Of a stretch of DNA of 64,000 nucleotides, positions 39,627-39,824 are shown one piece after another. The translations under genes were made by a program, and so were the position numbers. A model generated the notes under the pieces. It was not told the origin of the DNA. It did no database searches and saw only the letters and a program-made list of their open reading frames with translations. How positions within the stretch are numbered: position 1 is the first letter of the stretch; each line of letters starts with the position of its first letter. Where the stretch lies: NCBI RefSeq assembly GCF_054482595.1, contig NZ_CM137008.1; one strand, given 5' to 3'.

Positions 39627-39824
39627 ATGAAAAGCGTGGTTGACAACACATCGAAATATCCTGACTGGAGTAAACGCGATGATATTAAAGCGAAACTGAA
39701 AGTTGAACTTATTCTGCTTCTACACAAGCATAAGTTCCCGCCAGTAGCGAATGATGATGTTTATATGGGTGTGCTGGCACAGGTAGAGAATTTTAAAGAA
39801 CATCATATGAGTGCTTTAAATTAA
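39627..39824 (+). pseudogene. relic resembling the C-terminal tail of a type I restriction enzyme R subunit (HsdR)
   Basis: 65-aa ORF; DDIKAKLKVELILLLHKHKFPP resembles the conserved HsdR C-terminal motif (...K.KL.V.I.R.L.KYGYPP) as I recall it; no helicase body upstream. Confidence 0.4.

Follow-up and report, generated by a model that had tools for sequence, protein, structure and literature searches.

The window analysed here, a stretch of 64,000 nucleotides, is the immigration control region (ICR) of E. coli. In it, yjiX (36041-36244) and yjiA (36171-37211) are followed by a plus-strand gene at 37535-39385, which encodes a 616-aa NERD and UvrD-like helicase. The gene belongs to the PADLOC candidate defence family C3a187 ('NERD+UvrD', E 5e-141), and its RefSeq name is '3'-5' exonuclease'. 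A G+C-rich hairpin with a 16-bp stem (39401-39438) lies between the stop codon of the NERD helicase and that of a Fic-family 3'-end relic on the minus strand (39454-39564), which comprises about 36 codons and the stop. The hairpin is terminator-like in look, and its scan score fell on the minus strand. DNA from the 3' end of hsdR begins at 39561 and includes an open reading frame (ORF) of 65 codons plus stop on the plus strand (39627-39824). The hsdR-symE spacer (39825-39908, plus strand) contains an imperfect inverted repeat at 39832-39840 / 39849-39857.

The earlier note on this DNA had placed the relic directly upstream of the symE promoter region, and the expected genes were found there. 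The symE toxin gene is located at 40039-40380 on the plus strand (Pfam SymE_toxin, E 5.8e-21), and the gene of the SymR antisense RNA at 39968-40044 on the minus strand (Rfam RF01809, 91.7 bits). A LexA-box-like CTG-N10-CAG was recognised by sequence inspection only at 39946-39961, upstream of symE. Sub-threshold Rfam matches to the speF leader and Ref66 were set aside as chance. A minus-strand gene for a 697-aa GmrSD protein (40427-42520) follows symE, and yjiS and yjiR form the further right end of the layout. The strain XH990 is 100% identical to the window across 39386-40040. The GmrSD reading frame is unbroken in the window, in XH990, whose DNA is identical, and in CFT073. RefSeq splits it into a 'GmrSD domain protein' and a 'DUF262 pseudogene' with a gap of 276-324 bp, which looks like an annotation artefact.

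Identity of the 65-codon ORF

The ORF starts with ATG, encodes 65 aa and carries DDIKAKLKVELILLLHKHKFPP exactly as the earlier note had quoted it. That note saw in the motif a resemblance to the C-terminal tail of HsdR, and two profiles and tblastn agree. The ORF matched Pfam PF11867 (T1RH-like_C) with an E-value of 1.5e-14 at profile positions 273-328 of 329, so that 56 of the 329 positions, about a sixth of the domain, are encoded; the score was 54.5 bits, where 26.8 is the cut-off. The match to PADLOC REase_I PDLC03040 gave an E-value of 2.4e-22 at positions 967-1027 of 1029. When HsdR of ATCC 25922 was searched against the window by tblastn, its aa 1019-1087 aligned to 39615-39821 with 95.7% identity (E 6e-36). 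The similarity of the ORF to HsdR is far above chance.

A megablast search of 39386-40040 was carried out against 5,426 complete E. coli genomes. From 39561 rightward, the query aligned with the 3'-terminal part of a gene for 'type I restriction endonuclease subunit R' that stands directly upstream of symE. At this locus, ATCC 25922 and mip270_04 have, in order, yjiA, brnA, brnT, a Mrr-like restriction endonuclease gene, hsdM, hsdS, hsdR, symE, yjiS and yjiR, and the intact hsdR is 3,264 bp long and encodes 1087 aa. The ORF corresponds to codons 1023-1087 of this type I HsdR. The genes for WP_000058884.1 (ATCC 25922) and WP_057696084.1 (mip270_04) have their final 65 codons and stop codon in common with the window, as well as the spacer and the symE gene that follow. 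The frame and the stop of the ORF are those of intact hsdR, and its ATG is an internal Met codon of that gene. The tail is about 94-97% identical in DNA to the two intact genes, with 63/65 identical residues to HsdR of ATCC 25922 and 64/65 to that of mip270_04 and to three other intact alleles. The spacer 39825-39908 is found 3' of hsdR only in alleles of this parent hsd family.

When the PDB was searched by sequence with only the 65 aa, no significant match was obtained; no structure of the C-terminus of this HsdR family is deposited, and intact HsdR matched only the motor region of EcoR124I (aa 142-510). Nothing was found in favour of a chance ORF with a spurious likeness to HsdR. E-values from 1e-14 to 1e-36, a frame and a stop in common with intact hsdR, and a DNA identity of 95-97% at the orthologous position in about 950 genomes leave that explanation with practically no probability. 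A conserved small gene independent of hsdR, which the earlier note had named as a reading that would overturn its own, was not encountered either. The tail together with the downstream spacer (39614-39908) occurs in 1,084 of the 5,426 genomes. In the records inspected or listed among these, the sequence belongs to a full hsdR or to an annotated truncated remnant, apart from one 47-bp match that carries no annotation, and no free-standing tail gene was seen.

The remnant as such is already known. RefSeq/PGAP labels the equivalents of 39615-39824 as 'type I restriction enzyme endonuclease domain-containing protein; incomplete; missing N-terminus' and marks the tail as a pseudogene. The pseudogenes H4J01_RS21240 (E2348/69), BW242_RS22315 (XH990) and ECSMS35_RS24580 (SMS-3-5) are the same object as 39615-39824 of the window. 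These entries, however, span only the part of hsdR from 39615 onwards and leave out the upstream hsdR piece, a 297-bp deletion, the junction microhomologies and the adjacent Fic relic, all of which are described below.

The rest of the restriction system is missing. With HsdR, HsdM and HsdS of the parent family, tblastn against the 64-kb window gave nothing at E<=1e-3 besides the relic, and no match was obtained at the same threshold with the subunits of type IA (E04), type IB (CFT073) and the Ecol_AZ159 family. The earlier statement that no helicase body, hsdM or hsdS lies nearby consequently holds for four families and for the whole 64 kb. Full-length HsdR aligned only through aa 1019-1087 and through a weak stretch ending in the upstream piece. 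This weak extension (HsdR aa 847-917 over 39395-39607, 41%, E 0.002) was rejected as hsdR because the stretch fits a Fic gene on the opposite strand, with 83% identity in aa and 89.7% in nt. The HSDR_N PD-(D/E)xK nuclease domain (aa 5-234 in the intact homologue) is absent from the window, and the SF2 motor (ResIII / SWI2_SNF2 plus domain 3, aa 293-729) has no counterpart there. The C-terminal T1RH-like_C domain (PF11867) is incomplete, consisting of positions 273-328 in the ORF and about 20 out-of-frame codons upstream. Without nuclease, motor, complete C-terminal domain and hsdM/hsdS partners, the relic is predicted not to act as a functional HsdR. On the other hand, identity, frame and stop at the orthologous position, combined with breakpoints and disabling lesions, mark it as a gene remnant. 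The ORF is very probably a non-functional remnant (pseudogene fragment) of hsdR from a type I restriction-modification (R-M) system that formerly resided at the ICR. The earlier note had spoken of the scar of a deleted or replaced type I R-M system, and the intact hsdM-hsdS-hsdR alleles at the same locus bear this out.

Junctions and formation of the scar

The scar exceeds the ORF and reaches 66 bp further upstream, to 39561. Its junctions were worked out base by base with BLAST and direct sequence comparison. Piece A (39561-39618, plus strand) is homologous to codons ~902-921 of intact hsdR (INKIKLPATKIQLLQ...), and piece B (39614-39824, plus strand) to codons ~1019-1087 plus stop, of which codons ~1019-1022 (39614-39626) precede the ORF. 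The two pieces are joined by an in-frame deletion of 297 bp (99 codons), which corresponds to positions 9058-9354 of the ATCC 25922 locus (L003). In intact hsdR the deleted segment is flanked by the imperfect direct repeats ACTGGAAAAAGCGAT / ACTGGCAAAAGAGAT, and the crossover falls in an ACTGG microhomology at 39614-39618 of the window. A C>A change at 39619 is private to the window lineage, and an additional T at 39609 (plus strand) puts piece A in another frame than the tail. Fic-derived DNA extends up to 39564 and hsdR-derived DNA starts from 39561, so that for the outer breakpoint a three-way comparison of the E04 Fic gene, intact hsdR and the window leaves a 4-bp GAAT overlap (39561-39564). 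Against ATCC 25922, homology ends exactly at the yjiA stop (37212) and restarts at 39561. A recombination junction inside the island had been suspected in the earlier note, and breakpoints were located at 39561-39564 and 39614-39618.

The configuration of NERD helicase, Fic relic and hsdR relic is present in 100 of the 5,426 complete genomes, including EPEC E2348/69 and SMS-3-5. Seven other relic genomes were checked for the junctions (GDSC2227PM, E2348/69, SMS-3-5, A25, 201609, SC434 and XDL). Both junctions are identical in all seven, and the non-coding flanks differ by up to ~8% from the window. The additional T is found in the window and GDSC2227PM and is absent in the rest. The E2348/69-type relics, which are without this T, contain a predicted, unannotated TTG-start ORF of ~97 codons (L004, ~7322-7616) that begins in antisense Fic, crosses piece A and continues into the tail.

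The Fic relic is identical in 25 of 30 aa (83%) to aa 210-239 of a 244-aa Fic protein of E04, whose gene adjoins yjiA, and the DNA identity to that gene is 89.7%. RefSeq does not annotate the relic in the genomes that bear it. Related Fic genes stand beside yjiA in ~118 E. coli genomes, with 82-90% identity. The NERD helicase gene was found in only 100 of the 5,426 complete genomes, always alongside the hsdR relic. It falls into two sequence groups, of which the coding sequences are ~2% apart and the upstream spacers ~8%.

At the level of the aligned sequences, two rearrangements clearly part the window from the intact alleles, namely the 297-bp deletion in the C-terminal domain of hsdR and the GAAT join. 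The ancestral order at the ICR would have been brnA-brnT-(Mrr-like nuclease)-hsdM-hsdS-hsdR-symE. The GAAT join, an illegitimate one, connects codon ~902 of hsdR to the inside of the minus-strand Fic gene (about codon 208-210) and eliminated hsdR codons 1-901 together with hsdS, hsdM and all genes that preceded them. Between yjiA and the join there now lie the NERD+UvrD helicase gene, the hairpin and the Fic 3' end, and the helicase gene holds the site of brnTA, the Mrr-like nuclease gene, hsdM, hsdS and hsdR codons 1-901. The additional T is a later insertion in the window's own lineage. At least three events would be required: the loss of 297 bp at a microhomology, the join at GAAT and the insertion of T in one lineage.

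The outer join itself may have formed in two ways. An incoming yjiA-NERD-Fic segment may have been captured by homology-facilitated illegitimate recombination, with a homology anchor in yjiA and a GAAT microhomology end in hsdR. Alternatively, and for this step only, the join may stem from an in-situ deletion in an E. coli ancestor with the layout yjiA-NERD helicase-Fic(-)-...-hsdM-hsdS-hsdR-symE, a possibility to which we give somewhat less than an even chance. A minus-strand Fic gene upstream of hsdM-hsdS-hsdR does exist at the locus, in Ecol_AZ159 and in a Pseudocitrobacter MAG, and one deletion from Fic to hsdR would yield the observed orientation of both relics. However, these AZ159-type layouts have a different hsdR family, the 3' end of which is unalignable, and no NERD helicase. 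The NERD cassette is paired with an intact Fic gene in none of the 5,426 complete E. coli genomes. Furthermore, the Fic piece, at 82-90% identity to any E. coli Fic gene, is much more diverged than the hsdR pieces, at 95-97% to E. coli hsdR. Because of this difference in identity and of the missing pairing, capture of incoming DNA is slightly favoured over deletion in place, as judged from sequence comparison. The presumed ancestral or donor layout, with NERD helicase and intact Fic, was found neither in the E. coli genomes nor in species representatives: a degenerate Fic-motif scan of 100,044 of the latter returned only the Pseudocitrobacter MAG, which has the AZ159-type layout, and a short stretch of Phytobacter, and the NERD helicase is missing from both.

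Fate of the tail

In the best explanation the tail itself is inactive, and what can be read from the DNA makes this highly probable. No sigma-70-like site was detected on the plus strand in 39300-40450, and the ribosome-binding (Shine-Dalgarno) context of the ATG is weak by our own reading of the sequence. The possibility that the tail is retained as a small functional protein, which for example binds the HsdM2S methylase of this hsd family, disturbs the assembly of complexes able to restrict and so acts in a dominant-negative or anti-restriction manner, was considered together with the substitution pattern. The C-terminal region of HsdR has been implicated in binding the HsdS-HsdM complex (PMC2878639). 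The T1RH-like_C domain of the intact enzyme has been linked to the docking of HsdR on the HsdM2S methylase. All eight relic genomes examined have kept the ORF intact in spite of the non-coding divergence of up to ~8%, which speaks for a retained peptide. Derived substitutions were polarised with five intact alleles as the outgroup, and piece A and the spacer (150 bp) served as flanks. Over the relic lineages, 7 derived changes in the 198 bp of the ORF compare with 14 in the 150 bp of the flanks (Fisher p 0.04). Four of the seven are synonymous and three non-synonymous, and dN/dS is about 0.19 with n=7. The synonymous excess is not significant when transition bias is allowed for (p 0.11, tiny sample).

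The contrast also depends on the lineage. In the window lineage it is 1/198 in the ORF vs 10/150 in the flanks (p 0.001), and in the E2348/69 lineage 3/198 vs 2/150, which is no contrast. The flank changes of the window lineage consist of 7 in the 84-bp spacer, nearly all of them C>T or G>A transitions, and 3 in piece A. Its ORF has 0 synonymous changes vs ~2.6 expected at the flank rate. Since synonymous changes are missing from the window lineage, mosaic or patchy recombination, which is typical of this highly polymorphic region (PMC12707154), fits better than selection at the protein level. The alleles of the symE 5' region are shared between relic-bearing genomes and genomes with intact hsdR, the window with mip270_04 and SMS-3-5 with 99RCEF, which likewise points to recombination across the locus. 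An import of ORF variants from intact alleles was unsupported, the best intact alleles being 4 mismatches in 490 away from the chimeric test queries. The lower substitution density of the ORF may reflect mosaic recombination, clustered mutation or constraint, and it does not qualify as evidence for a function.

Besides these weak and lineage-dependent statistics and the poor promoter and Shine-Dalgarno context, several features of the locus argue against a functional peptide. A strong hairpin stands upstream, only 56 of 329 domain positions are left, a frameshift cuts off the otherwise in-frame upstream part in the window lineage, and no cognate methylase is encoded in the window. Independent scars of other lengths, which are compared below, show that leftover 3' ends of hsdR are a common accident. 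A retained functional protein is therefore rated as very unlikely. Still less probability is given to a tail that is expressed and useful, either as a decoy that would bind the methylase core of the widespread hsdM-hsdS-hsdR family and blunt restriction, or as a DNA or RNA insulator of the SOS-regulated symE/symR pair. If true, this reading would explain the intact and less substituted ORF in the relic-bearing lineages.

The cassette turnover at the ICR of E. coli is well known, and an inactive remnant of this kind is one of its ordinary by-products and matters little in itself. In 100 complete genomes, among them that of the EPEC prototype E2348/69, it is already labelled a pseudogene in the reference annotation. 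It has a modest value as a dated marker through the GAAT and ACTGG junctions and the stacked Fic and hsdR relics. From these it follows that at least two events mediated by microhomology gave rise to the island variant, starting from an ancestor with hsdM-hsdS-hsdR. A candidate defence gene, the NERD+UvrD helicase, now occupies the place where intact alleles have type I R-M, the Mrr-like nuclease and brnTA. The junction sequences could serve to type this ICR haplotype.

Parent system and comparison with known type I loci

The ICR is described as a 'bastion of polymorphism' with cassette-like variation, and its resident type I families are given as IA, IB and ID, along with brnAT, symE/symR and rpn (PMC12707154, a 2025 review). 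Operons of the order hsdMSR group with StySBLI, which is type ID (PMC10030836). At the locus studied here, the 3' end of hsdR and not hsdS abuts symE because the gene order of the parent was hsdM-hsdS-hsdR. HsdR of type IA has 1170 aa in an R-M-S locus, and that of type IB, annotated as 'EcoAI/FtnUII family', has 810 aa and likewise stands in R-M-S order in CFT073; neither is similar to the relic. A K-12-type (IA) system was ruled out as the source of the relic, since there is no match to IA HsdR and the gene order is wrong. The earlier note had proposed to locate the breakpoint by alignment to hsdR of K-12 and other strains. The outer breakpoint was indeed found against intact hsdR of non-K-12 type, whereas type IA HsdR gives no match; as the relic is not from the IA family, the alignment to K-12 hsdR would have failed.

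Because types IA and IB are excluded, the review lists only IA, IB and ID, and the hsdMSR order groups with StySBLI, the parent system is probably of type ID (StySBLI / EcoR9I / KpnAI), an assignment reached by elimination of IA and IB only. The elimination is complicated by a further family with M-S-R order, that of Ecol_AZ159, which is also found at this locus and adds a further type I family at the ICR to the three others tested (parent, IA and IB). Its hsdR was rejected as the parent: the length is equal, but the 3' end is unrelated to the relic and cannot be aligned with it. In Ecol_AZ159 and in the Pseudocitrobacter MAG the locus reads yjiA-brnA-Fic(-)-GmrSD(-)-hsdM(781 aa)-hsdS-hsdR(1087 aa), and after it a hypothetical gene takes the place of symE. 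The GmrSD protein of this layout has 76% identity to the one of the window, which sits across symE.

The window shares the yjiA-yjiN island with the ICR of K-12 (mrr-hsdR-hsdM-hsdS-symE-mcrBC; EcoKI, type IA). Between the two, symE/symR is semi-conserved and the defence genes are replaced wholesale, and K-12 shares the sequence of the window only from about 39908 rightward. In K-12 and in type IB loci the order is R-M-S and hsdS abuts symE, whereas in the window it is hsdR that abuts symE. The closest comparison is with the intact alleles of the parent family. About 950-980 of the 5,426 complete E. coli genomes (~18%) retain the missing hsdR segment in the corresponding position, with the gene order hsdM-hsdS-hsdR-symE; the 297-bp segment itself is present in 980. 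Relative to the intact 1087-aa HsdR, the window is without codons 1-901 and ~921-1019 and without hsdM and hsdS, and its piece A is frameshifted.

Other genomes carry scars of the same hsdR family. In P19_598 (L025, 6376-7211) and DEF2, a fusion of hsdM' (58 codons) with 'hsdR (223 codons) stands beside symE, and brnTA and the Mrr-like nuclease gene are kept. In SLDY13 and RM14516 the 3' ends of hsdR are truncated by IS elements. As in the window, these are 3'-terminal remnants of a system of which the rest was lost. Unlike the relic of the window, however, the independent scars have other breakpoints and other partners, namely hsdM and IS3/IS66 elements. The NERD helicase, the Fic relic and the 297-bp deletion are absent from them, whereas the window has all three.
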